A stretch of DNA of 64,000 nt from a virus (taxonomy: Duplodnaviria > Caudoviricetes), in the IMG/VR virus record IMGVR_UViG_3300038426_000029, positions 17,993 through 81,992 of that record; one strand, given 5' to 3'. Each line of letters begins with the position of its first letter. The first letter of the stretch is position 1. Shown in pieces: positions 5,671-56,142 of this stretch. The translations under genes and the position numbers were made by a program. Under the pieces are notes generated by a model that had not been told where the DNA came from, ran no database searches, and saw nothing but the letters and a program-made list of their open reading frames with translations.

Positions 5671-5687
5671 ACCGAAACACTTATAAA
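5671..5687 (+). promoter_or_regulatory. Archaeal BRE-TATA promoter (divergent from minus-strand operon)
   Basis: ACCGAAACACTTATAAA; same motif recurs elsewhere in the window. Confidence 0.7.
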
Positions 5688-5748
5688 CTCTCCTAAAAAC
5701 AGTTCTGTGGGAATCCCCGTCTAAACGGAATCCTAAAGGTAAAACAAA

Positions 5749-6087: not shown

Positions 6088-6090
6088 CGG

Positions 6091-6255: not shown

Positions 6256-6258
6256 TAA

Positions 6259-6849: not shown

Positions 6850-6973
6850 TTATTTTACTTCCGCTTTCCGCTTTAATTTCCGCTTTACGCTTCCGGTTCC
6901 GAGTTCACGCTTGGTTGGTTCCAATCAACTAGCATTTTTATGTAGTATATATAAATAGAAGTGTTTATAAATG

Positions 6974-8307: not shown

Positions 8308-8312
8308 TTACA

Positions 8313-8828
8313 TCATCCACTTGATTGCTGTTTTTCCTTACTTTTTTCTTTTGTTTCATAAATGAAATCAATATATGTACTAATTCTATATGGTCTATCA
8401 ATGTGCCAAATTGGTAGTTCACCCTCTTTTAATATTGGTTTGTGTCCTTCATAATAATCTACATCATAGTGCCAAGTATCCATACTCTGAGTTAATGGTG
8501 GTTCCCATAGCCTTTTTCTATCTGGTCCACGCTTACCGATGTGAATGTGCCTTCTAACATCTTTTTCGTGTTCCCTCAGATATATCACAGATCGTGGTTT
8601 GACTTTAGACACATCATCACGTATTCCGAACACAGTTTCCACACCAAGCATCTGATTGAGTTTAGATACAGTCTCAACATATTTATCCGTTTCGGTATAA
8701 ACTTCCTCAACATACTTTGGTCTTAAATGAAGTACCCTACATACAGAATAAACAATGAGTTTTATGCCCCTTTGCATAGCATATATGTAGTCCAAGTCTG
8801 GATTGTCCCAATCGAATAGAACTTTCAT
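8313..8828 (-). CDS. Hypothetical protein, possibly a degenerate polysaccharide-deacetylase-like fold
   Basis: DWDNPD, HIH, WH motifs; position in glycan operon; weak. Confidence 0.4.
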   Translation of the reverse strand: MKVLFDWDNPDLDYIYAMQRGIKLIVYSVCRVLHLRPKYVEEVYTETDKYVETVSKLNQMLGVETVFGIRDDVSKVKPRSVIYLREHEKDVRRHIHIGKRGPDRKRLWEPPLTQSMDTWHYDVDYYEGHKPILKEGELPIWHIDRPYRISTYIDFIYETKEKSKEKQQSSG

Positions 8829-9907: not shown

Positions 9908-10902
9908 TTCAACCATTTCTTTCCATATCCAAATTCTGGTTTATTCTTGTTTTTAATTAAAATCCATAGCTGTTTATACTCTCCAATACTCTCCAAAAAC
10001 TGGAATACTAACAAATTTAGGCTCAATTTTCCGTGAGATACAATTACACCATAGCACAATCCAAATATGGACAATGCCAAGGTTAATCCAAATAAGGTTG
10101 CTGACGGAATAGAACCTATGGCTAAACTAAGCAGAATCATAATAATTGAAAATAAAAAGCCAGTTCTTAATAATACACCAAAAAAGTGATGTTTACATAA
10201 CAAACAATAACGCCAACCATATTTATAAAAAAACCTGAAAAAAGTACCTGTTTTTAGGGCTTTGGTTATATTTCTCATTCCATATATACCAAAATGGTAT
10301 CCTTCCGAGCCACAATCAGCACCTATTTTTCCTGCCTGTGATAAACGTATAACTAAATCAAAGTCTTGACCACGTGTAAATAATGGATCAAAACCACCAA
10401 CTTCAATAGCATCCTTTCTCCTAAATGCAATTATTCCAGATAGTGGATCAGCACCATTTGTGTATTTCAGTTCTGTCGAAGCTGGAATTTTCTCTGGATC
10501 AACCTCAGATATTTTACTTGGATTCTCTGGTGTGCCCGAATTACATAAATAAGACAAATTTTCATTACTGACAAAAAAGCCCATCATTCTTTCTACCCAA
10601 TGTTTTGACTTGATTCCATCTGAACTTGCCCAGAGAATTATATCCCCCTTAGCTTTTGATAGTGATAGACTCATAGCATAACCTGTACCTATGCCCTCTC
10701 TATCATAGCACAGTCTAACAGGCACACTACATTTTTTCTGAAAGTCTAATATTAATTCCTCTGTTTTATCTTCACTTTTACCTATGCAAACCACATATTC
10801 ATCTGGTTGAACTACCTGTTCTAACAACATCTTTAATGAATATGGTAGACACCACTCTGCATTACGGGTCGGAAGAACAACAGAGGACATCATTTTTTTC
10901 AC
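9904..10902 (-). CDS. GT2 glycosyltransferase with C-terminal TM helices
   Basis: VVLPTRN, GGFD, GQDFDL; hydrophobic tail. Confidence 0.8.
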   Translation of the reverse strand: MKKMMSSVVLPTRNAEWCLPYSLKMLLEQVVQPDEYVVCIGKSEDKTEELILDFQKKCSVPVRLCYDREGIGTGYAMSLSLSKAKGDIILWASSDGIKSKHWVERMMGFFVSNENLSYLCNSGTPENPSKISEVDPEKIPASTELKYTNGADPLSGIIAFRRKDAIEVGGFDPLFTRGQDFDLVIRLSQAGKIGADCGSEGYHFGIYGMRNITKALKTGTFFRFFYKYGWRYCLLCKHHFFGVLLRTGFLFSIIMILLSLAIGSIPSATLFGLTLALSIFGLCYGVIVSHGKLSLNLLVFQFLESIGEYKQLWILIKNKNKPEFGYGKKWLK

Positions 10903-11564
10903 TTCTTATATATTAATAATGGGTCTTTCTTGTCCAGATGCACCAATAAACGGTGTGTACCTAATAATAGAGCAAAATCCAATTTCAATTTTAGTAATAT
11001 TCCTGCTGTGAGAGATTCTACAAATAGCTTTCGCTTGGACATTGAGATAAAAACCGTATCTGGTACAAGACTGATCAAGTCTTTCTCAGTGAAATGATAT
11101 GGGTGTATCTGATCAAACTCATTCATTATTGGTTTGACAATGGGTGAGAAAATATTTGAAAAAATATAAATTCTATTTGTGGAAACACGAATCATTTCAT
11201 TTAGTGCTTTTTGCGGATGTTCGGTGTGGTCTAACATATTCATGGCATAACAATCTCTAAAATGGTTATCCTCAAAAGGTAGGTTTTCAGCATTTGCTTG
11301 AATAAAATTCTTTCCATATTGGCTAAAATCTAGTGAATCTGTCCCAATTATTTTATCCGAAAATCTCCAAAAGCCATCAGAACCACACCCAACTTCTATA
11401 TTTAAGCCATCAAAATCTTTCAACTCAATTAGGTCTGCCCAAAACTTGAAACTATATGGAACCCCCCATTTCTGTGGTTTATTTTCCTCATTATATTTTC
11501 TTTCTAACTCTTGTGAATGTTCCCATTTGTTTTTTATTACTCTTTCTATCAAATCTGTATTCAT
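10899..11564 (-). CDS. Class I SAM methyltransferase (type 11)
   Basis: IEVGCG, AENLPFEDNHF, LDH, EMIRV. Confidence 0.85.
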   Translation of the reverse strand: MNTDLIERVIKNKWEHSQELERKYNEENKPQKWGVPYSFKFWADLIELKDFDGLNIEVGCGSDGFWRFSDKIIGTDSLDFSQYGKNFIQANAENLPFEDNHFRDCYAMNMLDHTEHPQKALNEMIRVSTNRIYIFSNIFSPIVKPIMNEFDQIHPYHFTEKDLISLVPDTVFISMSKRKLFVESLTAGILLKLKLDFALLLGTHRLLVHLDKKDPLLIYKK

Positions 11565-11590
11565 ATCATTCTCTCCTTATTTTCACCATA

Positions 11591-13162
11591 CTATCCATCT
11601 ATACTTGTTCCTATCCATTTATAAATCTTTATGTTTTTATACTCTTCAACTAATTTCCAATCAGGTAAGTCTTTCCAAATATCTGGAATTGGTTGATTGA
11701 TTTGAACTGTTCTATACTTGGTTTTGAAGAAAAAGAAAGCAGATTTCTCCATTCTAGGACTCAGAATGATATATTTAAAAAATGGTGGTATTATCTCTAC
11801 GGTTGTGGTTTCATTTGCATTTATTGTTGTTTTTGTCGTAGATACAGTTAAGTTCAAATTTACTTCAATTCTTTGATTTTCTATAGTATAAAAACTATCC
11901 TGTAGCAACGGTAATCTGAGGTCTGAAGAGTAAAATATAAGTGAATTTTTCATTGGTACATCTGTCCACCATTCGGTAAAATTATATGTATTGTGTATAA
12001 TTGAACTGTGTCCTAAGAATTCATATTCATCCGATGTCATTGCATTATTAATATATAACATAGTATTAGCACCATTTATAGATGTTAATATCATAGTTGT
12101 AATAATAATTAATATAAAAATAATAGACAATATTGTTTTAAATTTGCTAATTAGTAAAGAAGTAAAGAATGATAATGGTAAAATAAAATAAAAAATTACT
12201 CTTGTTGGTGCAATTAGATATGGTGAATAGAATAACCAACTAACGACAAATAATAAAATACAACCAAATAAATATTCAAACATAATATTTATCTTTGGTT
12301 TATATAACAATATTGATATTAATGATAATATAACCATAACAACACTACCAAAGAAAATAGACACACCAAGTAATAAATCAGATATGGAGTATAAAAATAT
12401 ATTAGATAATTTGAATTGTGATGACATTGAACTAGGTAGAATAAAATATGTCATTACTTGATGTGGATTTAATGATGAAATCAAAAATAAAACAACCAGA
12501 CATAACACAACGGCTACATAAACTTTGTGTCTATAGTTTCCATTTAAGAAAATATCTAACAATACCAAGCCTATAATAAAAACTGCTGGTAATATGTGTG
12601 TATACATTGATATTACTATAAACACTAAGAAACCACAAAAGAATTTTATTTTGCTGTTTCTTTGTTCTTTATCTTTTGTATTTAAATACATATAAAGAGC
12701 AAGCATTGCAAAAAAGAAACCTAACGATTCTGTACTATTGAATATGCTCGATCTATATATCATATTTTCACTAAATGTCCATAGTGTTGTTGCTACAAGT
12801 GCTACTTTCTGGGTTGATATTTTTCTTAGTATATAATAAATAGGAATTATTGTCAATCCACCGATGATTGGGTTTACATATTGGCATAAAATTGTTGGAT
12901 CAATGTGTGTTATTAAGTAGATAAAATATACTAAGTATTGTTCTAAAACAGGTTGATAACCAAGGCGAAAGGTTGTACCTGTTTTTATTAAGTCAAGAAT
13001 TGTGTATACATATCCTTCCTCTTCAATAATCCAACGTGGTATGAGATAAAGATGCGGATATGATCTGTAAAAAATACCTGCAATAGATAATATAAATAGC
13101 CATATGCTAGTTTTGCTGATTTTAGCCTTAGTCTCTTCTAAAAAACAAAACATTTTGTTCAT
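11591..13162 (-). CDS. Polytopic membrane protein, GT-C-fold glycosyltransferase-like
   Basis: About 11-13 TM segments, acidic EEE after TM1, YQPV loop, soluble C-terminal domain. Confidence 0.6.
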   Translation of the reverse strand: MNKMFCFLEETKAKISKTSIWLFILSIAGIFYRSYPHLYLIPRWIIEEEGYVYTILDLIKTGTTFRLGYQPVLEQYLVYFIYLITHIDPTILCQYVNPIIGGLTIIPIYYILRKISTQKVALVATTLWTFSENMIYRSSIFNSTESLGFFFAMLALYMYLNTKDKEQRNSKIKFFCGFLVFIVISMYTHILPAVFIIGLVLLDIFLNGNYRHKVYVAVVLCLVVLFLISSLNPHQVMTYFILPSSMSSQFKLSNIFLYSISDLLLGVSIFFGSVVMVILSLISILLYKPKINIMFEYLFGCILLFVVSWLFYSPYLIAPTRVIFYFILPLSFFTSLLISKFKTILSIIFILIIITTMILTSINGANTMLYINNAMTSDEYEFLGHSSIIHNTYNFTEWWTDVPMKNSLIFYSSDLRLPLLQDSFYTIENQRIEVNLNLTVSTTKTTINANETTTVEIIPPFFKYIILSPRMEKSAFFFFKTKYRTVQINQPIPDIWKDLPDWKLVEEYKNIKIYKWIGTSIDG

Positions 13163-13772
13163 TTAAATATGTTCCTCTTCTGTCAATGATTGTAAACCCA
13201 TTTCTTGTAACATTGTCTATGAAATAACTCATAGGGAATGAATATTCATGTACACCCTGCTGACTAAAGTGTTCCCAACCCCAATTAAGTAGACCACCAA
13301 AGAAAGAAAAATGGTTTGGTTGAACTATCATTAACCACTTATCTGAGATTCGGCAACCTTCTTTTATGAACGGTAGTGGGTCTTTAAAATGTTCCCACAA
13401 ACCCTCAGAAAACATAAAATCAAACTTTCTATCTGGATAGCCTGTATTGGAACCATCTTTTCTGAAAACATCTACATTTTCTGTTAATCCATGTAGTTCT
13501 GATTTTCTCATTGCATGTGATGATATGTCTATTCCGATTGAGTTTTTAAAACCTATATCTCGCAAGAGTAGTAATGTTTCCCCACTTCCACAACCTACAT
13601 CAATTGCTGATAGTTCTTTAGATATTGATTTTAACATTTTTCTTATTATTCCCATTCTCTGGACACGAAGGAATTTACCAATAATGGAACTGTGTTCATG
13701 TATATCGGCTGATTTTATCCATTCCTCTTCCCATAACCTTGCAACATCTTCAATAGACATACCAACCATCAC
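13128..13772 (-). CDS. Class I SAM methyltransferase
   Basis: IDVGCGSG, GIDIS, FDFMFSEGLWEH. Confidence 0.88.
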   Translation of the reverse strand: MMVGMSIEDVARLWEEEWIKSADIHEHSSIIGKFLRVQRMGIIRKMLKSISKELSAIDVGCGSGETLLLLRDIGFKNSIGIDISSHAMRKSELHGLTENVDVFRKDGSNTGYPDRKFDFMFSEGLWEHFKDPLPFIKEGCRISDKWLMIVQPNHFSFFGGLLNWGWEHFSQQGVHEYSFPMSYFIDNVTRNGFTIIDRRGTYLNEQNVLFFRRD

Positions 13773-14485
13773 CTTACACTATCAACGATGGAATATAGTG
13801 GTGCTTTGACTTTCTTCACTACTCCAAGCCTAAAATAATAAATATTACTGTTTTTACCAGACGAAAATTCCTTAAATGCTGGTGTGTGTAATACATCATC
13901 TGAAAGCAATATACCACCAGATTTCAGATATTTCCAAGCGGTATTGTATTCAAATGACATAACTTCGTAACTATGTTCACTATCATGTAAGAACATATCT
14001 ATTGAACCTAGTCTATCCAACAGAGGAACCAAAACATCACTGCTAAGACCACGCACTATTTCCCATCTATCCTTTAGTTCATCTGGAACAAACCAACCAA
14101 TTTTCTTACCTGTTTCACTTGAGTTACGATCACCTGCCAATCTACCTATACCTAAACAAAACTCATCTGGGTCAATAGAGTATAATTTTCCCATGTTATT
14201 ATCGTGAAGTGCCCTTAATATAAAATAAGAGGAAAAGCCGCTATTAATACCCGTTTCAACAACTATTTCTGGTTTATATTCTCTGACTAGAGCATATATA
14301 TACTCACAACAATCATACCAAACAGGTCCACAATCTCCTAACATATATCTATAATTAAAATCACTAACAACACACTTGAATTTAGACGTTAATCTGTATG
14401 TTCTGGGTTTGGTGACAATATAAGATGCAAGAACAAGTGGATTTGATAATAGATACTTTGTTTTTATTTTATTCATTGTATTCAC
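13769..14485 (-). CDS. Class I SAM methyltransferase (Methyltransf_24-like)
   Basis: PEIVVETG, LYSID, DMFLHDSEHSY, GGILLSDD. Confidence 0.85.
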   Translation of the reverse strand: MNTMNKIKTKYLLSNPLVLASYIVTKPRTYRLTSKFKCVVSDFNYRYMLGDCGPVWYDCCEYIYALVREYKPEIVVETGINSGFSSYFILRALHDNNMGKLYSIDPDEFCLGIGRLAGDRNSSETGKKIGWFVPDELKDRWEIVRGLSSDVLVPLLDRLGSIDMFLHDSEHSYEVMSFEYNTAWKYLKSGGILLSDDVLHTPAFKEFSSGKNSNIYYFRLGVVKKVKAPLYSIVDSVR

Positions 14486-14497: not shown

Positions 14498-15199
14498 TTA
14501 AAGAGTTGAAAAACATTTTTGTATTGCACCCTCATAATCACTATCCATCTTGTTTTCTTTATGATATAAGATACTACATATTTCACATATCTTTGAATCT
14601 TCCATATTCCACCATTCAGATTTAAGCAACATATCTATGGTCTTTTGTGAAAACCTATATTTAATAACCTTCGCTGGAACACCAACAACAACCGCATATG
14701 GTGGAACATCCTTGGTGACAACAGCACCAGCACCGATAACAGCACCTGTGGATATATTTACAGGTGGCAGAATTATCACATTTGAACCTATCCAAACATC
14801 ATTTCCAATTGTAATTAGATTACTTTCTTGGAGATATTCTTCAGCTAACTCTTTTTCAATAAAACCATATTTACGTTCGGTTGTTATTGGGTGTGTAGTA
14901 AATCTGTGGATTGGATGATCATATCCAGCAAGAACCAAATTACGTGCTATTGCACAGAAATTTCCTATGCTTTTAAGTGTATGATATTCAGAATTAAGTA
15001 ACTGTATAACACCATATGTATATCTGCCTATTTCTATGTTAAAATACTTCTTATAAAAATATATCACTAATCTTTGATCTTTATATTTTCTATTCAAAAA
15101 CCCCAGAATGGATACAATAAATACTGGTGGAATTGACTTTTTATGTAATATATATAGAACACTTAGTATGTGTTTTTCTGTGGTTGTTATATCATTCAA
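14498..15199 (-). CDS. CatB/Vat-like O-acetyltransferase; probable TTG start 15199
   Basis: IGRYTYG, IGNFCAIA, IGNDVWIG, GAVIGAGAVVTKDVPPYAVVVGVPAKVIKYRF. Confidence 0.85.
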   Translation of the reverse strand: MNDITTTEKHILSVLYILHKKSIPPVFIVSILGFLNRKYKDQRLVIYFYKKYFNIEIGRYTYGVIQLLNSEYHTLKSIGNFCAIARNLVLAGYDHPIHRFTTHPITTERKYGFIEKELAEEYLQESNLITIGNDVWIGSNVIILPPVNISTGAVIGAGAVVTKDVPPYAVVVGVPAKVIKYRFSQKTIDMLLKSEWWNMEDSKICEICSILYHKENKMDSDYEGAIQKCFSTL

Positions 15200-16547
15200 A
15201 TAAGAATCCCACCATACCTTTGGCATCGTTGAAAACATTAACCCACTCTCTTGGGTTTGTGGCAACATTCCACCAGAACTTTGGGTTTTTGATATAGAAT
15301 TCGTTAAAACAGTATTGCTCCCATTTCTTCATTTCCTCAAAGTTCATCATATACGTTCCCGGCATGTCTTGATGTGCCTTTCTAACATCAACTATAGTCG
15401 TGTTTGGATACTCCTGCAATTGTGCCACATTAATACGGGTAGCACCGTTATCCTTTATCCATTTGACCATATATCTTATATCAGCTTTCGACATCCAAGG
15501 GAAGATCATAAAACTAGAGGAAGTCCAGAGCTTGAGCTTGTTGACATCCTTGATAAATTGTGCTTCCTGTTTGACTGTAATATCCTTTTTCATCTCATCT
15601 AAATAGCTCTGAATTGGAACTTCATAGCCAACGTGCAAAGTCCGGCAACCAGCATCTTTCATCAGTCTCAGTGTATCATAATCCTTATCAGCACGTGAAT
15701 AGCAACCCCAACACAATTTGAGTCCTTCACTGAGCATTGTAAGACTGATTTCCCTTGCCCTTGATCCAATAAGTGTTGAATCTTGAAAGAAAAGTTGTTT
15801 GATCTGTGGAAGTTCATTTTTGACATACCAAAGTTCTTCCATCACATTCTTGATGCTACGCTGTACATAACGCTTTGGATGTAAGAGATCACAACCATTT
15901 GTCCAACTACAAAACGCACAACGGTGAGGGCAACTTAAAGCTGAAAATAAATCAATAAACGGATACCTGAAACTTGTCTGATGATAATCAAAAAAGTCTA
16001 AGTGTTCAGCATAAACCTTTGTAACGAAAGGCATCCAATCAAATTCTTCCTGTGTATACGGTTCAGCCTGTGGATTGAAGAGAATATCTTTACCTTCTCT
16101 ATATTTTAGACCTTGTATTAATCTCTTTGGCTCATCTGTATAAAGGTCTTGTAACGTGTATTCAAAATTTCCGAAAGTCATTTCATTAACGTTTGGGCAT
16201 TTATCTAGAGCATCGGGCATATGAGCAGACCAAGGACCAACGAGAGTTACATGGTAATCCTTACCCAATTCATTAGCGAATGAAAGATCGGATTCTGCCG
16301 TATCATATGCCCAGAAATAGGCTATGGCTTCTGGTTTCAGACTATTAACAAGAAACTTAACGTCTAAACACGAATCTTTTTTCACAGAAGCATCATATAA
16401 ATAACATTCATGTCCAAATTTCTCTAGTGTTCCAGTAGCATACGCAAGATGGATAGGATACCATGATTGTGTACTAATCTTTGATTTACGAACTAGCCTT
16501 CCCGTTCTTATTGCTTCTCCCGGTGGGTTCAATAAAAGAACTTTCAA
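15192..16547 (-). CDS. B12-binding radical SAM protein (HpnJ/class B-like)
   Basis: N-terminal LLLNPP..YPIHLAY..DA cobalamin-binding domain; CPHRCAFC; FFQDS; VGYE. Confidence 0.88.
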   Translation of the reverse strand: MKVLLLNPPGEAIRTGRLVRKSKISTQSWYPIHLAYATGTLEKFGHECYLYDASVKKDSCLDVKFLVNSLKPEAIAYFWAYDTAESDLSFANELGKDYHVTLVGPWSAHMPDALDKCPNVNEMTFGNFEYTLQDLYTDEPKRLIQGLKYREGKDILFNPQAEPYTQEEFDWMPFVTKVYAEHLDFFDYHQTSFRYPFIDLFSALSCPHRCAFCSWTNGCDLLHPKRYVQRSIKNVMEELWYVKNELPQIKQLFFQDSTLIGSRAREISLTMLSEGLKLCWGCYSRADKDYDTLRLMKDAGCRTLHVGYEVPIQSYLDEMKKDITVKQEAQFIKDVNKLKLWTSSSFMIFPWMSKADIRYMVKWIKDNGATRINVAQLQEYPNTTIVDVRKAHQDMPGTYMMNFEEMKKWEQYCFNEFYIKNPKFWWNVATNPREWVNVFNDAKGMVGFLFE

Positions 16548-17972: not shown

Positions 17973-18217
17973 TTGATGTTTAATTCCTTAAAACCAATTT
18001 TTTCACAAAACTTAAATAAAATATAACCATACATAAAAATGAATGGTATTGAAATAAACCCGCAAACAATTTCAACAGCATCATTAGTTATAAGCATTGT
18101 ATTAAATAATTCTTGCGATCCAACAAACAATCCACCCAAAAAAGATACCGTTAATATAGCAAAGGCAGTAGAAACAGTTATAAATAAAATAAAATAAAAA
18201 TCGTTAATTTTGCTCAT
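17969..18217 (-). CDS. Small 2-TM protein
   Basis: Hydrophobic; overlapping stop/start. Confidence 0.55.
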   Translation of the reverse strand: MSKINDFYFILFITVSTAFAILTVSFLGGLFVGSQELFNTMLITNDAVEIVCGFISIPFIFMYGYILFKFCEKIGFKELNIK

Positions 18218-19413
18218 TTGACATTCAACTCTTTCACTAATCTACGTTGCATACTGATTATAAATGTTATGGTTCCCAGCATCAGAGAAGCTATAAAACT
18301 TATACCACAGATGAGTGCCATAGATATATTGAGTTTGAATGTTTCGAGATATAAACCTGTCGTGTATAGACCAGAGAATAATGATGTTAAGAATAAGATG
18401 GCTGTTGGTATTCCAATATATGTGTAGGGTCTATTCCATACAGCACCCCAGAATATTATCTCAATGAGTGTCAGACCCTGATATATAAATTTTGTGGGAT
18501 GTTCTGGTTTGTTATAAGTGACATTACATGGCACATCTGTTATGTTTAAACCCTTCTCTCTTGCCCTATTAATTATCTCAAGGGATGCTTCCATTCCATC
18601 TGCTGTCAAATGTAGCCTATCAATTGCAAATTTATTATATGCCCTGAAACCGCACTGAGTATCACCAATACCATAGATCATATTAATTCCCTGAACAACA
18701 ACTCTTCTATGGTAAGGCATATTATTTGTTACTGAAAACCTATTACCAACAACAATATCTGAATCTTGAATTTTATCTAAAAACTTTGGAATTTCATTAG
18801 GATCATGCTGTCCATCTCCATCAAGCGTAATGAGGACATCATAATCATTAACCTTAGCATATTTGAAGATTTCTTGTAAAGCTCTGCCATATCCAGACCA
18901 ATCAAATTCTAGAACCTTAGCACCATAAGATTTTGCAAGAAAAGCTGTTCCATCTGTTGATCCATTGGAAACAACAAGAACATCACCATATTTCTTGGAC
19001 TCTTTTACTACATCTTTAATGTTATCCTGTTCATTATATGCAGGAATACCAATCAGGATATTATGACCTAATGGAAACTTCACTTTTAGTGTATTATCTA
19101 ATAGTGCCATTTCCTCTGGATCGGTTGATTCTGCATCACAGGCAACAAAATGATAGTGTTCTGGTATTGAGCAGTGTGTAGAATCACAGAAATACCAAGG
19201 CTTGATACCGACATACTTGTTCATGTATTCTATGAGCTTGGCTTTGACACGTATCTGTTCTTCAAAAGTAGGTTTATCAGAGTGTCTAATTATGCTGGAC
19301 ATCAGACGAATTTTATGCCCTTTCTTATCTTTAGTTTCCACAACATATACTAATTCATCTGTGTAAATAAGTTTTTCTCGTTGAGGAATAGTACAGAGTG
19401 AACATTCAGACAT
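18214..19413 (-). CDS. HIT-like domain fused to DPM1/GtrB-like GT2 with C-terminal TMs
   Basis: N-terminal CSLC...EHYHFV; then IGIPAYNE, ITLDGDGQHDP, DTQCGFRAY. Confidence 0.8.
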   Translation of the reverse strand: MSECSLCTIPQREKLIYTDELVYVVETKDKKGHKIRLMSSIIRHSDKPTFEEQIRVKAKLIEYMNKYVGIKPWYFCDSTHCSIPEHYHFVACDAESTDPEEMALLDNTLKVKFPLGHNILIGIPAYNEQDNIKDVVKESKKYGDVLVVSNGSTDGTAFLAKSYGAKVLEFDWSGYGRALQEIFKYAKVNDYDVLITLDGDGQHDPNEIPKFLDKIQDSDIVVGNRFSVTNNMPYHRRVVVQGINMIYGIGDTQCGFRAYNKFAIDRLHLTADGMEASLEIINRAREKGLNITDVPCNVTYNKPEHPTKFIYQGLTLIEIIFWGAVWNRPYTYIGIPTAILFLTSLFSGLYTTGLYLETFKLNISMALICGISFIASLMLGTITFIISMQRRLVKELNVK

Positions 19414-19681: not shown

Positions 19682-20359
19682 TTACACAACTGGTTTTAAA
19701 GCTGTTTTCCATTTTTCAGTGAATTCTTTTACAGCTTCCTCTGTTTTGGGATGTTTGTACATCTCATTTAGGACTTTGTACGGAACTGTTACAATATCAG
19801 CACCGCTATCCATACAGACCTGAACATCCTCTGGACTTCTGATACTTCCACAGATTAGGAGTGGTCTATCACCACTACCAAATCTCTGTAAATATTCGGC
19901 TGTTATTCTGATCTGTTCCTTTGCGTAATCAAAGTTCTTGAAATCAATCATTCTCCTGTAGAAAAGGGAGATATAATATGGTTCTGACTCAAGACCAATG
20001 ATAGCCTGATAAGCAGACATTAGACATGTTAGATTTACTGGAATATGTTTTCTTTTTAAAGCATTTATTAATTCTGATGTGCGAGTATCAATCATAGGTA
20101 CTTTTACTACTACCTTTTCCATACAACACATATAGTATTCTGTTGCTTCATCAACAAGTTTATCTATAGATAAAAATGGATCAATCAACTCAACAGATAC
20201 ATCATATATATCATATTGACATATATCATGTATCATCTTCTGTATGTCTTTCACACCAGATTTTGCCATTAGACTTGGGTTGGTTGTAATACCATCACAT
20301 AAACCAAGGCTAAGAATCTCATCTATCTCTTTCAAGTCTGCCGAATCTAAGTATAATAT
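19682..20359 (-). CDS. tal: Transaldolase/fructose-6-phosphate aldolase (TalC type); N-terminus extends upstream of the track start
   Basis: ILYLDSA, GITTNPSL, VVVKVP (Schiff-base Lys), VNLT, GSIR, GADIVTVP, HPKT. Confidence 0.92.
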   Translation of the reverse strand: MLYLDSADLKEIDEILSLGLCDGITTNPSLMAKSGVKDIQKMIHDICQYDIYDVSVELIDPFLSIDKLVDEATEYYMCCMEKVVVKVPMIDTRTSELINALKRKHIPVNLTCLMSAYQAIIGLESEPYYISLFYRRMIDFKNFDYAKEQIRITAEYLQRFGSGDRPLLICGSIRSPEDVQVCMDSGADIVTVPYKVLNEMYKHPKTEEAVKEFTEKWKTALKPVV

Positions 20360-20754
20360 AGCCCAACATCCTCCATATACGTTTTTAACATTTCTTCATT
20401 TATCTCAGTCTTTTTGTTCAGTTTAGTAATCATATCTATAGCAGTTAGAACTGTTATTTTTTCGTGTCTAGCTAGATATAGTGCGACCACAAACGCTGAA
20501 CGAGACTTACCTTCACGACAATGAATTAGTATTCTCTTTCTTTTATTAACTTGTTCTCTAATCTTCTTCAAGACTAGATTATAGTGCTTAATAGGATTGT
20601 GACCATCCACTAGATGGAACTTATAATCCTCAAATCCTGTATCACTTCCACCCACATTTATAACGAAACAAATATTATTACTTCTAAGATCGTCTAAAGT
20701 ATATTTATCGTTTCCTATAAATATATCTTCTGTTATTTTTGTTATCGACATCAT
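20347..20754 (-). CDS. Dual-specificity (Cys-based) phosphatase
   Basis: IHCREGKSRS (HCxxGxxRS), LVDG acid loop. Confidence 0.88.
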   Translation of the reverse strand: MMSITKITEDIFIGNDKYTLDDLRSNNICFVINVGGSDTGFEDYKFHLVDGHNPIKHYNLVLKKIREQVNKRKRILIHCREGKSRSAFVVALYLARHEKITVLTAIDMITKLNKKTEINEEMLKTYMEDVGLYYT

Positions 20755-21320
20755 GTTACCTTCAATACATTTATTTCCGATACTAATGCATGTGCTAAGA
20801 CACTATGTATTCCCTCAACTATATAAGGATTTCTTGTATCTACACAGAGTGAAATATCACATAACTCTTTTAAATTACCACCATTATTGCCTATAAAAGC
20901 ATATCTATAACCGTGCATAGATTTAAAATACTTTGCTAAATTAAACAAATTAGAACTCCACAACTCATCATTCGGACTCTTGCCACTTGAACCATTCACA
21001 CTAGCCATAATGAGAATGTCACCATTCTTGATCCTACCCTTGACAACGGAAGAGTAAACATCATCCCAACCATCATCATTTATCTTGGCTGTGAGGGAGG
21101 GGACATTATCTGTTATGCAGATTGCTTGTATTCCAAGGTTTGTAAGGTCTGATGCTAAGTGACTCATCGTTGCTGACGAACCACCATTACCAACTAACCA
21201 CACCGTAGCATTAAAACGGTGTGCCCTGATGAAAATTGCATTTGCAATATCTTTTATAAGAATTATATTCGTTTCTGGTAAATATTTTACAACTTCATCA
21301 ATTACCTGTCTAGCTGTCAC
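20751..21320 (-). CDS. gmhA: Phosphoheptose (sedoheptulose-7-P) isomerase, SIS domain
   Basis: GNGGS, HLASD, TAKINDDG, GG.LKELCD, EGIH. Confidence 0.85.
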   Translation of the reverse strand: MTARQVIDEVVKYLPETNIILIKDIANAIFIRAHRFNATVWLVGNGGSSATMSHLASDLTNLGIQAICITDNVPSLTAKINDDGWDDVYSSVVKGRIKNGDILIMASVNGSSGKSPNDELWSSNLFNLAKYFKSMHGYRYAFIGNNGGNLKELCDISLCVDTRNPYIVEGIHSVLAHALVSEINVLKVT

Positions 21321-22251
21321 CTGCTATCACCTCTGAGCCTGTATATGTCATTTTGAATGGAACATATGCCCTACTCTCGAAACAACCAGACTGAAGAATT
21401 TTTGTTCTTGTTTTATTATCTGGAATAACTACCATGAGGAATCCACCACTACCTGCACCGACTAATTTTCCACCAATAGCACCGTTTTGTCTCAATTCAT
21501 CATAGAGATTATCTATCTCTGGTGTAGACATCTCAGGTGAAATTGTCTTTTTAATTTTCCAGTGATCATCCATAAGTTCACCAAGTTTTTGATAATCCAG
21601 ATTCATAATAGCCTTAGCGGATTCTCTACCAATCTCTTCAATATCTTTAAGTTGCCGTGTGGATTCCTTTACAGTATTGAGTATCCTTCCCGAATCACGT
21701 ATATTTGAGGTATAAATTAACATTAAGTGGTTTGTAAGTTCTGGTTCTGTGAGAATTATATCATCAACTTTACCATCCCTACCAATCATATAAACTCTAG
21801 TTCCACCAAAAGAAGCCGAATATTGATCCTGCTTTCCGATGGGTCTTGAAAGATTGTTCCGTTCAATGGAATATGCCTGTTCAGCCAAGTCGGTTTTACT
21901 TATTGTAGGATTAAATGCCTTTATTGCACCAACTGTGAAAGCACCAGAAGAACCTAATCCTGAACTTCCGGGTAGATCAGCAAATGTGATAAATTCCTGA
22001 TTCTGCCATATGTTAAACTTCTTGAATATCTCCCTGATTATTGGATGTTGAATATCTCGATTGCCTTTAGTAATTTCTAGATTTGAATAAACTATTCTAA
22101 GTTCTTTCTCAAACCTAGTGTTTATAGCTATATATATGTATTTGTCGATTGTAGCTGAAATCCAGAAACCACCGTTTTCTTGATAGTATTCTGGTATGTC
22201 TGTTCCACCACCCCCAAGTGTTATACGTAAAGGTGTTCTTGTAATGATCAT
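21310..22251 (-). CDS. hddA: GHMP kinase, D-glycero-D-manno-heptose-7-P kinase family
   Basis: RTPLRITLGGGGTD, PGSSGLGSSG, GKQDQY, GGKLVGAGSGGF. Confidence 0.9.
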   Translation of the reverse strand: MIITRTPLRITLGGGGTDIPEYYQENGGFWISATIDKYIYIAINTRFEKELRIVYSNLEITKGNRDIQHPIIREIFKKFNIWQNQEFITFADLPGSSGLGSSGAFTVGAIKAFNPTISKTDLAEQAYSIERNNLSRPIGKQDQYSASFGGTRVYMIGRDGKVDDIILTEPELTNHLMLIYTSNIRDSGRILNTVKESTRQLKDIEEIGRESAKAIMNLDYQKLGELMDDHWKIKKTISPEMSTPEIDNLYDELRQNGAIGGKLVGAGSGGFLMVVIPDNKTRTKILQSGCFESRAYVPFKMTYTGSEVIAGDS

Positions 22252-22880
22252 ACTAAACGACCACCACTGGTTTTTGGCACATGAAATATAAGTGAATAAT
22301 GTGTTTGTAAATCATTCATCTTTTTCTTTTTACAATTTCCTACCTCAAAAATCATAACATCACCATTTTGCTTTTTTGCATAAACATCTACAGCATAACG
22401 ATGTCCATTAATTGTTATAAATCTCTCTGTTTCTACAACCATACCAAGAGAACGTATTTCGTTTGCTATTTTATTTTTTATAGTTTTATGTTCATCAGAC
22501 TCTCTTGAAATATTAAGATATTTAGCATCATTTTCAAAATATATATGAAGTTTATTACTAATTGAATCTAATGTTTTTTGTGAATAGACATTTGTTTTTC
22601 CTTTATTCCAAGGAATGTGCCCTATATTAGCATCACTAATTCTTTTTACACTTTCATTATTATACTTAGTTTTACCAATATTCCAAACGGTTCGTTCACC
22701 ATTTTCATATAATTTTTTTAAACTTTTAGATGTCTTTTCTTTTTGTTCTTCTGAAACACACATACCTTTCTTAGTTTTTGATATATTATCCCCCCATTCC
22801 CTGCTTCTGGGCTTTCCATTAAACGGATGTATGTGTACCTTGCCACACTTACGGCAGAGTCCATAGTTATGTCCTTTCAC
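22248..22880 (-). CDS. NUMOD3-like + PD-(D/E)xK-like putative endonuclease, copy 1 (divergent)
   Basis: WNIG/PWNKG repeats; ERFITINGHRYAVDVYA...FEVGNC. Confidence 0.65.
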   Translation of the reverse strand: MKGHNYGLCRKCGKVHIHPFNGKPRSREWGDNISKTKKGMCVSEEQKEKTSKSLKKLYENGERTVWNIGKTKYNNESVKRISDANIGHIPWNKGKTNVYSQKTLDSISNKLHIYFENDAKYLNISRESDEHKTIKNKIANEIRSLGMVVETERFITINGHRYAVDVYAKKQNGDVMIFEVGNCKKKKMNDLQTHYSLIFHVPKTSGGRLV

Positions 22881-22922: not shown

Positions 22923-23594
22923 CTATTTAGATTTCTCCATAGGTTTCGATTTATTAACACAATATAGTACTATCAAGATGTTTATAAACCTGTTGATCAT
23001 AAAATAAGGTGAATTCCAATAACTAGCTATAATACTACTATTCTCTGTTGGAACTGGTGATCTAAAATATAAGAATAATATTGAAATGATAACACCAGAT
23101 AAAACAGCAATTATTGTTTTTCTATCACTTTTCCATCCACAGGTAATATATATGAAAAGAACAAACAAAAGACCAACAAGCTGTAAGAAAATATCTATCA
23201 CAAATCCTTTTTGAAGTACGTTATATATAATTGTTGGTGCTTCCCAGAAAAATCTTCCTACACCAACAGACACAACCGAAATAGCAAATGCTTGTGGGAA
23301 GTCCCATTTTCTATCAACCATAAGGTACATTATAAATGAAAGACCAATAAAACCATAAAAAGATATTAAATATGTTATAGAAGTAGCATTTAATATATAT
23401 GTTAAATATGATCCATTAGACTGTATAAATGTATAAAATACTTGCATAAATAGTGTAAATAAAAGACCAATATACAAAAATATATATATTTTGTTTAACT
23501 TTGATGTTTTATAGTAGTAGAACATTATTGCAAAAGCAGGAAGTATCCACATCACAAAATATGCTAATAGTGACATTAAAGTTGCTTCATCCAT
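22923..23594 (-). CDS. Polytopic membrane protein (array member)
   Basis: About 6 TM. Confidence 0.7.
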   Translation of the reverse strand: MDEATLMSLLAYFVMWILPAFAIMFYYYKTSKLNKIYIFLYIGLLFTLFMQVFYTFIQSNGSYLTYILNATSITYLISFYGFIGLSFIMYLMVDRKWDFPQAFAISVVSVGVGRFFWEAPTIIYNVLQKGFVIDIFLQLVGLLFVLFIYITCGWKSDRKTIIAVLSGVIISILFLYFRSPVPTENSSIIASYWNSPYFMINRFINILIVLYCVNKSKPMEKSK

Positions 23595-23596
23595 TT

Positions 23597-24265
23597 TTAA
23601 AACCTTGGTGATTCAATTTTATAATTTTCTTCTTTACCATGCTCAACTAGGTAGTAAAATAGGAAGAACGTTGTTGTACGCATAAACAGCCAAAAGACAT
23701 TGGCGTTTGGATCATAATTATAGGAACTACCGACGGCAAAGTGTGTCCAGAAACCATTAATCCACAAAGCAAGATAACCAATTCCCTGTAAAAGTAGAAG
23801 CCCTACTGTCTTTAGTTTATCAGAAATACTCAACTTTTTCTTCAATATTGGATAGTGTTTATTCAAAATTAGAAGAATCCAGTAAAACCACACAATTACG
23901 GTCACATCCGTGATGAACATGATATTCCAAACACCATTTATTGCAAAGTTATTGAAGTCCCATAGAAATCCACCAAAGTAACTATGTATGGCAACTATGA
24001 GAAAAGAAGCAACTATTCTAGTTATAATAGGAATATGTTTTAATACTCTTTGATACATCATAAAAGCAATTGAAAACAATATCATAGAATAACTATGAAC
24101 ATAATTAATTGTGAATGGAATCTGTGATACTGCATATATACTTTTGGTCTGTAAAATAGGAATGGTACAATATATAATGATCAAAATTGGAATAACCCAA
24201 GTCACTATAACATTTATATTTTTACTTAGTTTTGGGTTGTTCATGTTTCTTCGTTCGTTCCTCAT
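23597..24265 (-). CDS. Polytopic membrane protein (array member)
   Basis: About 6 TM; YDPNANVFW resembles the TPxPHxWLW motif of neighbours. Confidence 0.7.
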   Translation of the reverse strand: MRNERRNMNNPKLSKNINVIVTWVIPILIIIYCTIPILQTKSIYAVSQIPFTINYVHSYSMILFSIAFMMYQRVLKHIPIITRIVASFLIVAIHSYFGGFLWDFNNFAINGVWNIMFITDVTVIVWFYWILLILNKHYPILKKKLSISDKLKTVGLLLLQGIGYLALWINGFWTHFAVGSSYNYDPNANVFWLFMRTTTFFLFYYLVEHGKEENYKIESPRF

Positions 24266-24773
24266 GTTGCTTTTTGTTAAGTATCATTGGGTATAGGAAC
24301 CATACGCCAAGTCCCTTGTTAATCATCCACAGCCAATCATGTGGATTTGGTGTTGTCATACCAGAAGCCAACCAAGCACGTACTAGTGGATAGTAACCTG
24401 TAAATGTGAAGATATAAAATGTTGAAAGTTCAATCAAATATAAAGCAATGCTCAGTTTGGTTAGATGTATGAATTTAAACAAATAATTACAGACAATAAG
24501 TGCTACAAACAATCCGATAACCACAACAATATACTGCATAAAATAGGAATTTATATTTGTCTCATATGTCATATACTGCCAAATGGATTCATAAAGATCA
24601 TTTCCAAAAGCACCCAATAAATAAGCTAACATAAGGGCATAGACAATGTTTGTATATCTAGATATTTTATAGAAAGCCACAAAACAGAAAACTGCATATG
24701 TTACAAATGACCAAACGTGAAGCTGATAACCACCAATATGAACTTCTAATAATAAAAGATTATAAATCCACAA
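24222..24773 (-). CDS. Polytopic membrane protein, paralog of 24785-25345
   Basis: Shared HVWS, VAFYKIS, ND.YE.IW, TP.PH.WLWMINKGLG. Confidence 0.75.
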   Translation of the reverse strand: MWIYNLLLLEVHIGGYQLHVWSFVTYAVFCFVAFYKISRYTNIVYALMLAYLLGAFGNDLYESIWQYMTYETNINSYFMQYIVVVIGLFVALIVCNYLFKFIHLTKLSIALYLIELSTFYIFTFTGYYPLVRAWLASGMTTPNPHDWLWMINKGLGVWFLYPMILNKKQHEERTKKHEQPKTK

Positions 24774-24784
24774 CCAGAAGTCGA

Positions 24785-25345
24785 TTATTGACGTTTTCTC
24801 TTTCCCCCCTTCAATCTTAAATTTCGCTGTTCCTTACTCAATATAAGCGGATATAAAGCAAAAGCACCCAAACCCTTATTGATCATCCATAACCAATTAT
24901 GTGGGTCTGGTGTTTGTCCACCAGACAAGAACCAAGGTCTAAGTACCTCATAATGCCCTGTGAAATATAATACAAAAAATGAAAGAATTTCAAGAGAAAT
25001 TAAAATAACAAAAGTTTTATTTATTCTTAAAAATACTGTTTTTCTATTAACGACAAACAAAAGGACAACAAGAGAACTTAGAATTATCATATCTTGTGGT
25101 ATTAACACTGTTCTGGATGGAATCTGTGCAAAGGCTGTCCAGATAGTTTCATAAAAATCATTTGCTATTATACCAACTAAAAGAGTTAATAATGCACTAA
25201 TAACAATATTATAATACTTGGAGATTTTATAAAATGCAACTAAACAAAAGGCAATATATACAACCAAAGACCACACGTGGATATTACCAAGAGAAGGTAT
25301 TGTGGAAAGTAAAAAAAGATAAAATTCTTCAAACATTAGAGCCAT
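24785..25345 (-). CDS. Polytopic membrane protein, paralog of 24222-24773
   Basis: Same shared motifs. Confidence 0.75.
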   Translation of the reverse strand: MALMFEEFYLFLLSTIPSLGNIHVWSLVVYIAFCLVAFYKISKYYNIVISALLTLLVGIIANDFYETIWTAFAQIPSRTVLIPQDMIILSSLVVLLFVVNRKTVFLRINKTFVILISLEILSFFVLYFTGHYEVLRPWFLSGGQTPDPHNWLWMINKGLGAFALYPLILSKEQRNLRLKGGKRKRQ

Positions 25346-25752
25346 TGCCCTTTATTCTTTCTCTTGGGTGCTAATCCTGTTAAGTATCCTAATGCACCAA
25401 CTGTTAATGAATAGTTCCAGAAAGCGGCAACCAGAATTGCACAAATATCCGCTATAATTAATGGTAAAATACTAACAAGAGATGAAAGAACTAAATAATT
25501 TACGGCAGTTCCACCTATACCACAAATAATAGCATAATTACCAAAACTCCAAATTTTCTTATAAAAACTTGCAATTGGACCTGAATCATCAGAAATCTTA
25601 TCCAAACCGAGAAGAATTAATCTAGACATTGGGTTGTCAATTGTTTGTGTAGATTCATTTACCTCAATAACCTTCTTATTCTCAGCTACTTTGAGTTGTG
25701 ACTTTAAGTTTTCAACTTGTTGCTTGAGTAATTCTAATTCTGTTGTTGACAT
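25336..25752 (-). CDS. GtrA-like polyprenyl-P-sugar flippase with N-terminal coiled coil
   Basis: GIGGTAVNYLVL...ADICAILVAAFWNYSL. Confidence 0.65.
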   Translation of the reverse strand: MSTTELELLKQQVENLKSQLKVAENKKVIEVNESTQTIDNPMSRLILLGLDKISDDSGPIASFYKKIWSFGNYAIICGIGGTAVNYLVLSSLVSILPLIIADICAILVAAFWNYSLTVGALGYLTGLAPKRKNKGQWL

Positions 25753-26399: not shown

Positions 26400-26520
26400 G
26401 GTTGATCATACTATATATGTGTTTATAAAGGTTATGTTAATGTATATTTGTTAACGGTTGATCATTACTGTTAAACCATAATCCTTATATAATAGTCTCG
26501 TACACTATGGATTGATTGAA

Positions 26521-27228
26521 ATGCCAAAGAAAGGAGAACACCCATCAGATGTAACAAGAAAACTACAGAGTGAGGCTAAGAAAGGTAAGCATCTCTCAGA
26601 CACAACAAAAAAGCTATTAAGTGAGATTAATAAAGGTGAGAATAACCCCATGTTTGGTGTGACAGGTGAAAAATGCCCTGCGTTTGGTATACATTTAACT
26701 GGTGAGAAAACCTCTATGTTTGGCAAACATCACACAAAGGAAACAAAAAAACTAATTGGTGATGCTAATAGAGGTGAAAAAAGTCCTATGTTTGGTAAAA
26801 CTGGTGGGTTATGCCCTAATTATGGCAGACATCACACGCAAGAGGAAAGAGTAAAAATAAGTGTAGCACACCAACTACGTGTTCATCACACCAAAGGTGG
26901 AGGTACATCCCACCTAGTTACTATAGCACTCATTAGTAGTCGATTAGAGAGTCTGGGATGGAAAGTTGAAAGTTGGTGTACAACAGGAGAGAGATTTATC
27001 ACGATAGATAAACACAAATACTCACCTGATATTTATGCTACAAAGGATAATAATAATCCAATTTTGGTTGAGGTTGGAAGTTGCACAACACAAAAACTAT
27101 GCCACTTAATGTCCCATTATCCTGTGGTATTACATGTGTCAAAGCTGAAAATGGAGTTAGAATTTCAATTCTCTAAGAATGAAATGTCCACACTATATAA
27201 ATGGAATTTATTTAACAGGCTACTTTAA
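26521..27228 (+). CDS. NUMOD3-repeat + PD-(D/E)xK-like putative homing endonuclease, copy 2
   Basis: GEKxPMFGKHHT repeats; SPDIYA..ILVEVGSC. Confidence 0.75.
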   Translation: MPKKGEHPSDVTRKLQSEAKKGKHLSDTTKKLLSEINKGENNPMFGVTGEKCPAFGIHLTGEKTSMFGKHHTKETKKLIGDANRGEKSPMFGKTGGLCPNYGRHHTQEERVKISVAHQLRVHHTKGGGTSHLVTIALISSRLESLGWKVESWCTTGERFITIDKHKYSPDIYATKDNNNPILVEVGSCTTQKLCHLMSHYPVVLHVSKLKMELEFQFSKNEMSTLYKWNLFNRLL

Positions 27229-31829: not shown

Positions 31830-32675
31830 TCACACCATCCAACGATAAAATTTATGCCAATTAACTAAGTCTCTAATATCAATAGGTTTTAGTTCCATTT
31901 TCATTTTTGGGACTTGCAACACTATTGGATATTTGATCATAAGATTGCATAGTTTCTGTGTAGAACAATCCCCAACCTCAACTAGAATGATATCATTACC
32001 CTTCTTGGCATAGATGTCGGGTACATAATTATATTTATCTATTCTAACAAATCTCTCTCCCGTTGTAGTCCAACTCTGTACTGCCCACCCTAATCTCTCC
32101 AATTGATTACTAATGAGTGATATCGTAACCAAATGAGATGTTTTTCCACCTCTATTATGTTTTTCTTTTAATGGTGCTTTTTCTCTCATTTTTTCTCTTG
32201 ATGCCTCTGATTGGTGTTTTCCCTTCATAGGAGAAGGTCTACCCTTATTTGCCACACTTAATTTTATTTTTGTTGCCTCTGATGGATGTTTACCATAATT
32301 AGGACATAACACACCTATCTTGCCTTTTTGTGCGTTTCCGATTTTTATTCTTGTTGCTTCCGAGTGGTGTTTGCCAAACATTGGATTTTTATCACCAGTT
32401 CTACCAAACGCAGGGCATTTTTCACCTATCCTACCAAACATAGGGTTACTTTCACCTTTATGACCTTTTTTCATATTTGTCTCTTTAGAGTAATGTTTAC
32501 CTGAATTGGCACTACCAATTTTCACTTTGGTTTCTGGTGTGAGATGTTTACCATAATTAGGTGCTTTCTCACCTGTCCTACCCATACTTTTCTTGGTCTT
32601 ACTTATTTTTATTTTTGTTGCTTCTGAGAGATGTTGTTGTGGCATTTCATCAACATCAGAAAGTAACCATTCCAT
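31830..32675 (-). CDS. NUMOD3-repeat + PD-(D/E)xK-like putative homing endonuclease, copy 3
   Basis: PNYGKH..E.TK repeats; VPDIYA..ILVEVGDC. Confidence 0.75.
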   Translation of the reverse strand: MEWLLSDVDEMPQQHLSEATKIKISKTKKSMGRTGEKAPNYGKHLTPETKVKIGSANSGKHYSKETNMKKGHKGESNPMFGRIGEKCPAFGRTGDKNPMFGKHHSEATRIKIGNAQKGKIGVLCPNYGKHPSEATKIKLSVANKGRPSPMKGKHQSEASREKMREKAPLKEKHNRGGKTSHLVTISLISNQLERLGWAVQSWTTTGERFVRIDKYNYVPDIYAKKGNDIILVEVGDCSTQKLCNLMIKYPIVLQVPKMKMELKPIDIRDLVNWHKFYRWMV

Positions 32676-32702
32676 TTCAATCAATTAATAGATATAAAAC
32701 TA

Positions 32703-56114: not shown

Positions 56115-56142
56115 TTCGGTATTTTCATATACGGTAGAAAAC

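Follow-up and report, generated by a model that had tools for sequence, protein, structure and literature searches.

A conserved viral operon that may lead to activated heptose, with a dual-specificity phosphatase gene between isomerase and transaldolase genes

The biosynthesis of heptose is a drug target in bacteria and counts as a fixed pathway of four enzymes. In the version formed by GmhA, HddA, GmhB and HddC, the phosphatase GmhB belongs to the HAD fold and HddC to the NTP_transferase family. Here we describe an operon from a virus (Duplodnaviria; Caudoviricetes) that resembles this pathway and departs from it. It lies in a stretch of 64,000 nucleotides, called the window below, that covers positions 17,993 to 81,992 of the IMG/VR record IMGVR_UViG_3300038426_000029. 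On the minus strand, from 22251 to 19682, four overlapping or nearly abutting reading frames encode an HddA-like kinase, a GmhA-like isomerase, a Cys-based dual-specificity phosphatase (DSP) and a transaldolase (Tal). As in the known pathway, a GmhA-type isomerase and a GHMP kinase of the alpha-anomer type are adjacent and co-translated, with an SDR protein and glycosyltransferases nearby. Unlike it, the 64 kb show neither a HAD-type GmhB nor an NTP_transferase-type HddC; a DSP and a HIT-like domain are found instead, and a Tal is built into the operon. The operon is a real, conserved and unusual variant of the known pathway, whose biochemistry we infer from sequence. On balance, we hold it somewhat probable that it represents a virus-borne route to activated D-glycero-D-manno-heptose for a lipid-linked glycan, with all substrates, and the order of dephosphorylation and activation, being predictions.

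In the route that we propose, the transaldolase would boost the supply of sedoheptulose-7-phosphate, which the GmhA-like isomerase would convert into heptose-7-phosphate. The HddA-like GHMP kinase would then add the anomeric phosphate to give heptose-1,7-bisphosphate, and the Cys-based DSP would take off the 7-phosphate, a role that elsewhere falls to GmhB or to a small HAD, both of them HAD phosphatases. Nucleotide activation would follow, for which there are two candidates, the HIT-like domain that is joined to the next enzyme and a nucleotidyltransferase encoded outside the window. The SDR protein might modify the resulting nucleotide-sugar, and a GtrB/DPMS-type GT2 would finally attach the sugar to polyprenyl phosphate, from which it could be transferred on the outer side of the membrane.

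Caulobacter phage Cr30 carries an annotated epimerase-GT2-heptose kinase-GmhA set, and two viral loci (L052 and L043) share the order SDR-SDR-kinase-NTP_transferase-GmhA-Tal followed by a portal gene, so that viral heptose gene sets are already on record. A search of IMG/VR with the window kinase gave 218 confirmed stretches, and the counts of loci given here refer to the best 80 of these 218. Near the kinase we found GmhA in 72 of the 80 viral loci, an NTP_transferase in 18 and a transaldolase in 12. Sets from tailed viruses resemble the window in having a kinase (32-43% identical) together with GmhA and, in some cases, Tal beside them. They differ from it in that the window has a DSP and a HIT-like domain fused to a polyprenyl-phosphate glycosyltransferase. 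A blastn comparison of the operon with GenBank phages gave no match.

The most informative of these loci is a heptose island at 4734-13924 of the 115.8-kb viral contig IMG/VR UViG_3300028920_001945 (L091). Its first half consists of an NTP_transferase, a B12 radical SAM protein, an SDR, an HddA-like kinase, GmhA and a Tal with an ATG start. A HIT-like gene stands directly after Tal, followed by a small HAD phosphatase, a PfkB kinase, a radical SAM protein and a split transketolase. Tal and the HIT-like protein each share some 34% identity with their window counterparts, and the PfkB kinase is HldA-like, its only solved match being the beta-heptose kinase HldA (4e84). The PfkB kinase and the transketolase were also found in another locus, L036.

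Regarding Tal, the closest precedent is the talC gene of cyanophages, likewise a small TalC-type transaldolase on a virus, which is read as serving general pentose-phosphate flux. In contrast, the window Tal is physically coupled to enzymes that consume sedoheptulose-7-phosphate, which suggests precursor supply for a glycan rather than general flux. A preliminary description of this DNA had proposed that Tal is carried since many archaea lack it. This idea is weakened by the dozen viral loci in which Tal adjoins a kinase and GmhA. Besides, Tal alone would also need erythrose-4-phosphate, which a host without a pentose-phosphate pathway possibly does not supply. Given that Tal is paired with heptose genes in other viruses, some with a portal gene and one with a transketolase, raising the sedoheptulose-7-phosphate supply seems the simpler reading.

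The operon is held together by its layout. The overlaps amount to 11 nt between kinase and GmhA and 4 nt between GmhA and DSP, and the gene upstream of the kinase, orf210, overlaps it by 4 nt (Table 1). We fetched six independent metagenome contigs and found the kinase-GmhA-DSP-Tal order kept in all six, with the gene for the 399-aa protein that contains the GT2 next wherever the contig extends; the arrangement is hence not due to chance. Protein identities between the window and these contigs were 47-83%, with 47-58% for Tal, 58-83% for DSP, 62-67% for the kinase and 72-81% for GmhA, the most conserved gene of the module. Together, conserved order and identities indicate an arrangement under selection, and they support the view of the four genes as a conserved, translationally coupled module. 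The reading frames, the families and the six syntenic contigs thereby bear out the coupled hddA-gmhA-DSP-tal operon of the preliminary description, followed by a glycosyltransferase and an epimerase.

Table 1. Coordinates of the operon and of related features in the window (all on the minus strand).
Feature	Coordinates	Strand	Remarks
LbH protein	14498-15268	-	closest to the acetyltransferases (xenobiotic, streptogramin, chloramphenicol) CatB8, VatD and ApmA, E 1e-24 to 1e-21
SDR epimerase/dehydratase, 317 aa	17019-17972	-	Epimerase PF01370, 99 bits; GalE, RmlB and partial heptose-epimerase model; GxxGxxG, YxxxK
GT2 polyprenyl/dolichyl-phosphate glycosyltransferase (GtrB/DPMS/ArnC/AglJ type)	18214-19068	-	C-terminal membrane helices
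HIT-like domain (N-terminal 115 residues of the 399-aa protein)	19069-19413	-	candidate nucleotide-handling step
Small predicted membrane protein, 86 aa	19415-19675	-	between Tal and GT2; missing from relatives L083/L084
Small TalC-type transaldolase (Tal), ~225 aa from the probable start ATA 20359-20357	19682-20359	-	listed as 217 aa from TTG, 20335-19682
DSP/Tal overlap	20347-20374	-	GGAGGA 20374-20369, ATA 20359-20357, DSP stop TAG 20349-20347
Cys-based dual-specificity phosphatase (DSP), 135 aa	20347-20754	-	proposed heptose-bisphosphate phosphatase
GmhA-like SIS isomerase, 189 aa	20751-21320	-	predicted sedoheptulose-7-phosphate isomerase
HddA-like GHMP sugar kinase, 313 aa	21310-22251	-	predicted 1-kinase for the 7-phosphate of D-glycero-D-manno-heptose, alpha-anomer type
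orf210	22248-22880	-	NUMOD3-like repeats GHIPWNKGK and TVWNIGKT; weak DUF6035 match; between membrane-protein array and kinase

The best NCBIfam family of the kinase is HddA (NF049969; 129 bits, E 2.7e-37, for an equivalog cutoff of 600), and the runner-up family reaches 69 bits. Both GHMP domains, N- and C-terminal (PF00288 and PF08544), are present, and the translation contains the motifs GGGGTD, PGSSGLGSSG and GAGSGGF. Its best solved relatives are the heptose-7-phosphate kinases WcbL 4usk (3.4e-33), 4n3o and 3k85, with E-values from 1e-33 to 1e-29, while mevalonate kinase gave 1e-11. A heptose-type kinase is therefore supported, and phosphorylation of heptose-7-phosphate at O1 (alpha) is predicted. 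The best family of the SIS protein is gmhA (TIGR00441), with 58 bits, below the cutoff of 209. Among its 15 solved matches, the twelve strongest are phosphoheptose isomerases and two are the SIS paralog DiaA. When aligned to GmhA of B. pseudomallei, whose catalytic and metal residues we take to be His64, Glu68, Gln175 and His183, the protein retains GNGGS, SGKSPN, H54 and H177.

The aldolase scored 92.4 bits against TAL_FSA (PF00923; cutoff 27) and 98 bits against TIGR00875, below the cutoff of 246. Its best solved matches are the transaldolases of T. maritima (E 3.5e-26) and T. acidophilum (1e-22), with fructose-6-phosphate aldolase (FSA) at 1e-8. Glu60, Lys86, Thr110, Phe132 and Arg135 are matched in the alignment to the T. 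acidophilum enzyme. We assume that the Lys forms the Schiff base, that an N-terminal Asp belongs to the active site, and that Glu with Phe marks the transaldolase type as opposed to Gln with Tyr in the FSA type. These comparisons support a window aldolase of the transaldolase type, not of the FSA type. The claim of a self-contained heptose module in the preliminary description is fair for the part from sedoheptulose-7-phosphate to the bisphosphate.

The operon phosphatase falls outside the GmhB family, being a DSP and not a protein of the HAD fold with the DxDxT nucleophile motif. It matches DSPc (PF00782) with 48.4 bits, above the gathering cutoff of 33.5, and has the motif HCREGKSRS as well as an upstream Asp. 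We found 16 relatives with 58-84% identity, all of 134 aa. C79, R85 and S86 do not vary, nor does D50, which is the candidate for the general acid, and the whole segment H78-C79-REGKS-R85-S86 plus D50 is invariant or nearly so in the 17 sequences. In the relatives the gene always sits between GmhA and Tal, with overlapping frames in seven of seven copies. Across the viral loci, no DSP was found near the kinase (0 of 80), so its presence is confined to the window's own lineage. A HAD phosphatase stands with the same partners in L091 and, as described below, in a fusion protein (P0082), which suggests that a phosphatase is a regular member of the module and that here it is the DSP. From this comparison of gene contexts, a role of the DSP as non-orthologous pathway phosphatase appears plausible. 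The non-canonical phosphatase of the preliminary description is likewise plausible, in that the DSP occupies the place of the small HAD in the sister module L091 and in P0082. Our literature searches gave no paper that ties heptose synthesis to a DSP, and none on viral modules of Tal with heptose genes.

As to the enzymes that the known pathway would lead one to expect, the family scan covered the window open reading frames (ORFs) of at least 100 aa, excluding antisense shadows of identified genes, plus 26 small ORFs. No NTP_transferase (PF00483) or HAD family was detected among the window ORFs of at least 100 aa outside antisense shadows. A hidden Markov model (HMM) built from 20 viral HddC-like proteins gave no match in the window, nor did phmmer at maximum sensitivity with the nucleotidyltransferase, the small HAD, the HldA-like kinase and the transketolase of L091, nor did a cyanophage KdsC-like HAD used as seed. 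According to these Pfam, HMM and phmmer searches, the earlier statement that no HAD-type GmhB or HddC is visible is true within the 64-kb window. Two candidates for a hidden nucleotidyltransferase were rejected. The LbH protein, considered as GlmU-like, is of the XAT type and presumably a sugar O-acetyltransferase. The top, non-significant match of the viral HddC-like HMM was orf210, which has NUMOD3-like repeats. It was found in one relative, L081, but is missing from another, L085, whose kinase gene is directly adjoined by that of a membrane protein. It is probably a mobile insertion resembling a homing endonuclease, and no gene of the pathway.

Downstream of Tal, the 399-aa protein combines two parts. 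Folding from the single sequence gave a predicted local distance difference test (pLDDT) of 41, which is useless, and an alignment of 12 sequences gave an AlphaFold model with a pLDDT of 81. From about residue 115 on, this model matched DPMS 5mlz with a Z of 20.8 (root-mean-square deviation 5.5, 261 residues), ArnC 8vxh with a Z of 19.5, and GtrB in Foldseek with E 4e-12. This part also reaches 108 bits against AglJ (TIGR04182), below the cutoff of 325, and its DGDGQHD motif is invariant. We conclude from the model that the C-terminal 285 residues are a polyprenyl-phosphate glycosyltransferase. Both fold searches of the model returned GT-A matches throughout, and the evidence for a HIT-like fold in the N-terminal part comes from a family profile and an ESM Atlas model.

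Residues 1-115 define an uncharacterised family with about 116 clusters, most of whose members stand alone and have 110-160 aa, and in which H44, H86 and H88 are invariant and C4, C7, K31, H33, R36 and M38 nearly so. When the PDB was searched with the family profile, each of the three best matches was a HIT protein (E-values of 0.008-0.03), with the CxxC, GH...H and HxH segments aligned. The Atlas model has template-modelling (TM) scores of 0.69-0.72 to HIT (PF01230) clusters. The Pfam HIT models gave no match to the window domain, and a weak DcpS_C match was seen in 4 of 85 family members. The family shares with the HIT superfamily (Hint, Fhit, GalT and DcpS branches) the CxxC...GH...H...HxH layout together with profile and Atlas similarity. 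It differs in having two of the three triad His, R36 and M38 of its own, and new fusion partners.

Two fusion proteins contain the domain. P0045, of 357 aa and from an 8.5-kb contig, joins Tal to a C-terminal HIT-like domain, the two parts being 37% and 44% identical to those of the window; its locus gave no match in genome or viral contig collections. P0082, of 222 aa, joins a small HAD phosphatase to a HIT-like domain, and its HAD part resembles the 'capsule biosynthesis protein' 9iqw (E 1.4e-9). Being fused to Tal in one case and to a HAD in the other, the domain belongs to the module of Tal and heptose genes and not to the glycosyltransferase as such. GalT and GDP-L-galactose phosphorylase are examples of the sugar-1-phosphate nucleotidyltransferases and the phosphorylases within the HIT superfamily (PMC6354057, PMC6878703), which makes the HIT-like domain a reasonable candidate for the activation step.

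The operon lies within a glycosylation island of about 24 kb on one strand. The island encodes an STT3/AglB-like oligosaccharyltransferase, two more GT2s, WecB, an aminotransferase, two acetyltransferases, six methyltransferases, a B12-type radical-SAM enzyme and an archaeal-type SAM synthetase. The SDR protein, to judge by its family matches, likely acts on a nucleotide-sugar. This location in an island for lipid-linked glycosylation agrees with the earlier proposal that an NDP-heptose would be made for surface glycans. Compared with the GtrB of phage gtrABC-type systems and with archaeal AglJ/DPMS, the C-terminal part of the 399-aa protein is alike (GtrB/ArnC/DPMS-like), and a weak GtrA-like gene and polytopic membrane proteins stand upstream. 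The window GT2 differs in carrying an N-terminal HIT-like domain, in sitting in a sugar-phosphate operon and in its presumed sugar, heptose. The upstream genes form an array at 22923-25752 (minus strand), directly upstream of the operon, with four family-less membrane proteins and the weak GtrA-like protein (25336-25752); taken with the GtrB-like GT2, they recall a gtrABC-type set by which phages modify lipid-carrier glycans. Elsewhere in the window, a DAGK_prokar match (PF01219, E 2e-23) came from one small ORF, probably 2789-3136 on the minus strand, which might be a polyprenol/dolichol kinase supplying the lipid carrier; a solved-structure search with this ORF returned compositional matches only.

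An unusual feature of the operon is the start of Tal. The listed TTG start (20335) would cut the first strand, ILYLDSAD, which contains the catalytic Asp and lies in frame upstream, overlapping the last codons of DSP. In seven of seven copies, the strand ILYLD(S/T)A is found in frame upstream of any canonical start, and no ATG, GTG or TTG occurs between the upstream stop, 13-28 codons off, and the Asp strand. Downstream, the distance to a canonical start is 8-30 codons, and that start is not kept across the copies. Hence, the Tal reading frame most probably begins before the listed TTG, near 20359, where it overlaps the last part of DSP. All seven copies have an ATA at this place, where relatives have Met, and a Shine-Dalgarno-like GGAGGA or GGGAGA lies 9 nt 5' of it; similar motifs precede the start codons of many neighbouring genes.

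The stretch of the DSP/Tal junction, GATGTTGGRYTATAYTATAYTTAGAT, is conserved in seven sequences. From the ATA on, its substitutions are synonymous in the Tal frame, while the preceding codon varies (A, T, V) in that frame, yet synonymously in the DSP frame. Because the stretch is dual-coding, the C-terminal DVGLYY of DSP is invariant. The DNA pattern of the junction had no match in viral or genome contig collections. The canonical start is missing in the window's lineage only, whereas Tal of L091 and L052 starts with ATG or GTG. We conclude that Tal probably starts at the ATA at 20359, a predicted start codon with its own Shine-Dalgarno motif, in coupling to DSP termination 10 nt downstream.

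ATA is a poor start codon in those systems in which it has been measured. As an alternative, Tal might not start there, and a -1 ribosomal frameshift late in DSP would give a fusion of DSP and Tal. The Tal frame is indeed the -1 frame of DSP, open for 13-28 codons upstream of the ATA and devoid of canonical starts in all seven copies, the junction DNA is nearly invariant, and domains of the module do fuse in other lineages (P0045 and P0082). However, we found no conserved X XXY YYZ slippery heptamer, and the A-run of the window is missing in the relatives. There is no conserved downstream structure either, the consensus fold reaching -3.8 kcal/mol with one compensatory pair. Besides, the GGAGGA 9 nt before the ATA is compatible with ordinary initiation, and the codon preceding the ATA varies non-synonymously in the Tal frame. 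Among proteins of at least 397 aa searched there were no longer fused Tal homologs, a size range above that of a DSP-Tal fusion (about 355 aa). We therefore judge a frameshift improbable and keep initiation at the ATA as the probable mode. Regarding the chemistry, several observations weigh against the heptose route as a whole. The family scores of kinase, isomerase and aldolase are all far under the NCBIfam equivalog cutoffs, so that substrate specificity is not secured, and in the GmhA-like protein two positions are substituted, the putative metal/catalytic Glu68 by Asp58 and Gln175 by Val168. The three enzymes might then have diverged in substrate, and the module might yield another sugar phosphate and not heptose. 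The best-matching functions of the three nevertheless converge on sedoheptulose-7-phosphate and heptose, and the trio recurs in many viral loci alongside HddC-like, HldA-like and transketolase genes, which makes a different sugar the least probable of the alternatives considered here.

A more serious objection accepts the heptose genes as real and takes the DSP for a protein phosphatase, or some other phosphatase, that rides in the operon, in which case the host, or genes elsewhere on the element, would provide the 7-phosphatase and the nucleotidyltransferase. The closest solved relatives of the DSP are in fact protein phosphatases (DUSP10 and VHR), and small DSPs are common in viruses, the one that we inspected, in HGTV-1, being outside any sugar context. 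L052 (kinase-NTP_transferase-GmhA-Tal) and Cr30 (kinase-GmhA) have no adjacent phosphatase, so that viruses evidently can rely on a host GmhB. Some archaea have heptose pathways of their own or N-glycans that contain heptose (PMC3750248, PMC11407970). Contigs of up to 194-214 kb also encode precisely the DSP and the GT2 of the window, from which it follows that the window is less than one third of the element; the gmhB and hddC searches covered 64 kb, whereas the element has at least 194 kb, and this coverage counts against our reading. On the other hand, overlapping frames lock the DSP between GmhA and Tal in all seven copies, at 58-100% identity, and in the sister module and the fusion protein these partners go with a phosphatase that has a different fold. 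We thus consider a DSP that merely rides along rather unlikely, and a DSP acting within the heptose route the better account. For the activation step, a sub-hypothesis of our main reading is that the HIT-like domain would be a nucleotidyl transferase of the GalT or phosphorylase type that turns heptose-1-phosphate into nucleoside diphosphate (NDP)-heptose via a nucleotidyl-His and hands it directly to the fused glycosyltransferase. A HIT-like fold with two invariant His in HxH, the fusions that tie the domain to the pathway (Tal, HAD phosphatase and GT2) and the lack of an NTP_transferase within the 64-kb window all speak for it. So does the inventory of L091, where two heptose kinases stand with one classical nucleotidyltransferase and a HIT-like gene, so that the count of activating enzymes balances. 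The same locus can be turned against the proposal, since a classical NTP_transferase beside the HIT-like gene means that the HIT-like protein need not replace HddC. In addition, most HIT proteins are hydrolases, the full His triad is missing (either the first or the third His is lost, whichever alignment register is chosen), and support for the fold is indirect, as the assignment is based on marginal profile E-values and a language-model structure with the Pfam HIT models silent. We put forward activation by the HIT-like domain as a tentative possibility, less likely than not; within the heptose route, a nucleotidyltransferase encoded outside the window is the other candidate for this step.

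The remaining part of the window contains large family-less proteins, DNA methyltransferases, NUMOD3 genes and collagen-repeat proteins, and no tRNA or rRNA was found in it; this content fits a large virus-like element of an archaeon, the hosts being probably archaea of sediments. Besides orf210, three more proteins with NUMOD3 repeats, which are DNA-binding modules of the homing-endonuclease type, are encoded at 26512-27228 (plus strand), 31830-32684 (minus) and 43894-44862 (plus). Two adjacent proteins with collagen-triple-helix repeats (56074-56952 and 57054-57911, both on the plus strand; PF01391, E 1e-29 and 2e-14) form the sole stretch of the window with an elevated G+C content (0.44). 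At 53228-54595, on the minus strand, a ParB-N-like domain is fused to a radical-SAM/DUF5131 domain of the phage Gp37Gp68 type.

In its fullest form, the reading would have both late steps of NDP-heptose synthesis rewritten, with the DSP as heptose-bisphosphate phosphatase, a glycosyltransferase-fused HIT enzyme activating and channelling heptose-1-phosphate, and Tal made from an ATA start inside the phosphatase gene. We regard this complete combination as unlikely. If true, however, a pathway phosphatase with another fold would clearly exemplify non-orthologous displacement, and sugar phosphates would be a new substrate class for dual-specificity phosphatases. The HIT-like family, with its approximately 116 clusters and three independent fusions, to Tal, to a phosphatase and to a lipid-carrier glycosyltransferase, is a concrete candidate for a new nucleotide-sugar enzyme. 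On the conserved, start-less Tal one may test whether genes of this group are initiated at non-AUG codons or by coupling. Finally, large viruses of uncultured, probably archaeal hosts, as well as some tailed viruses, pack precursor supply (Tal and, once, a transketolase) with heptose genes, which implies a virus-directed remodelling of host or virion glycans.

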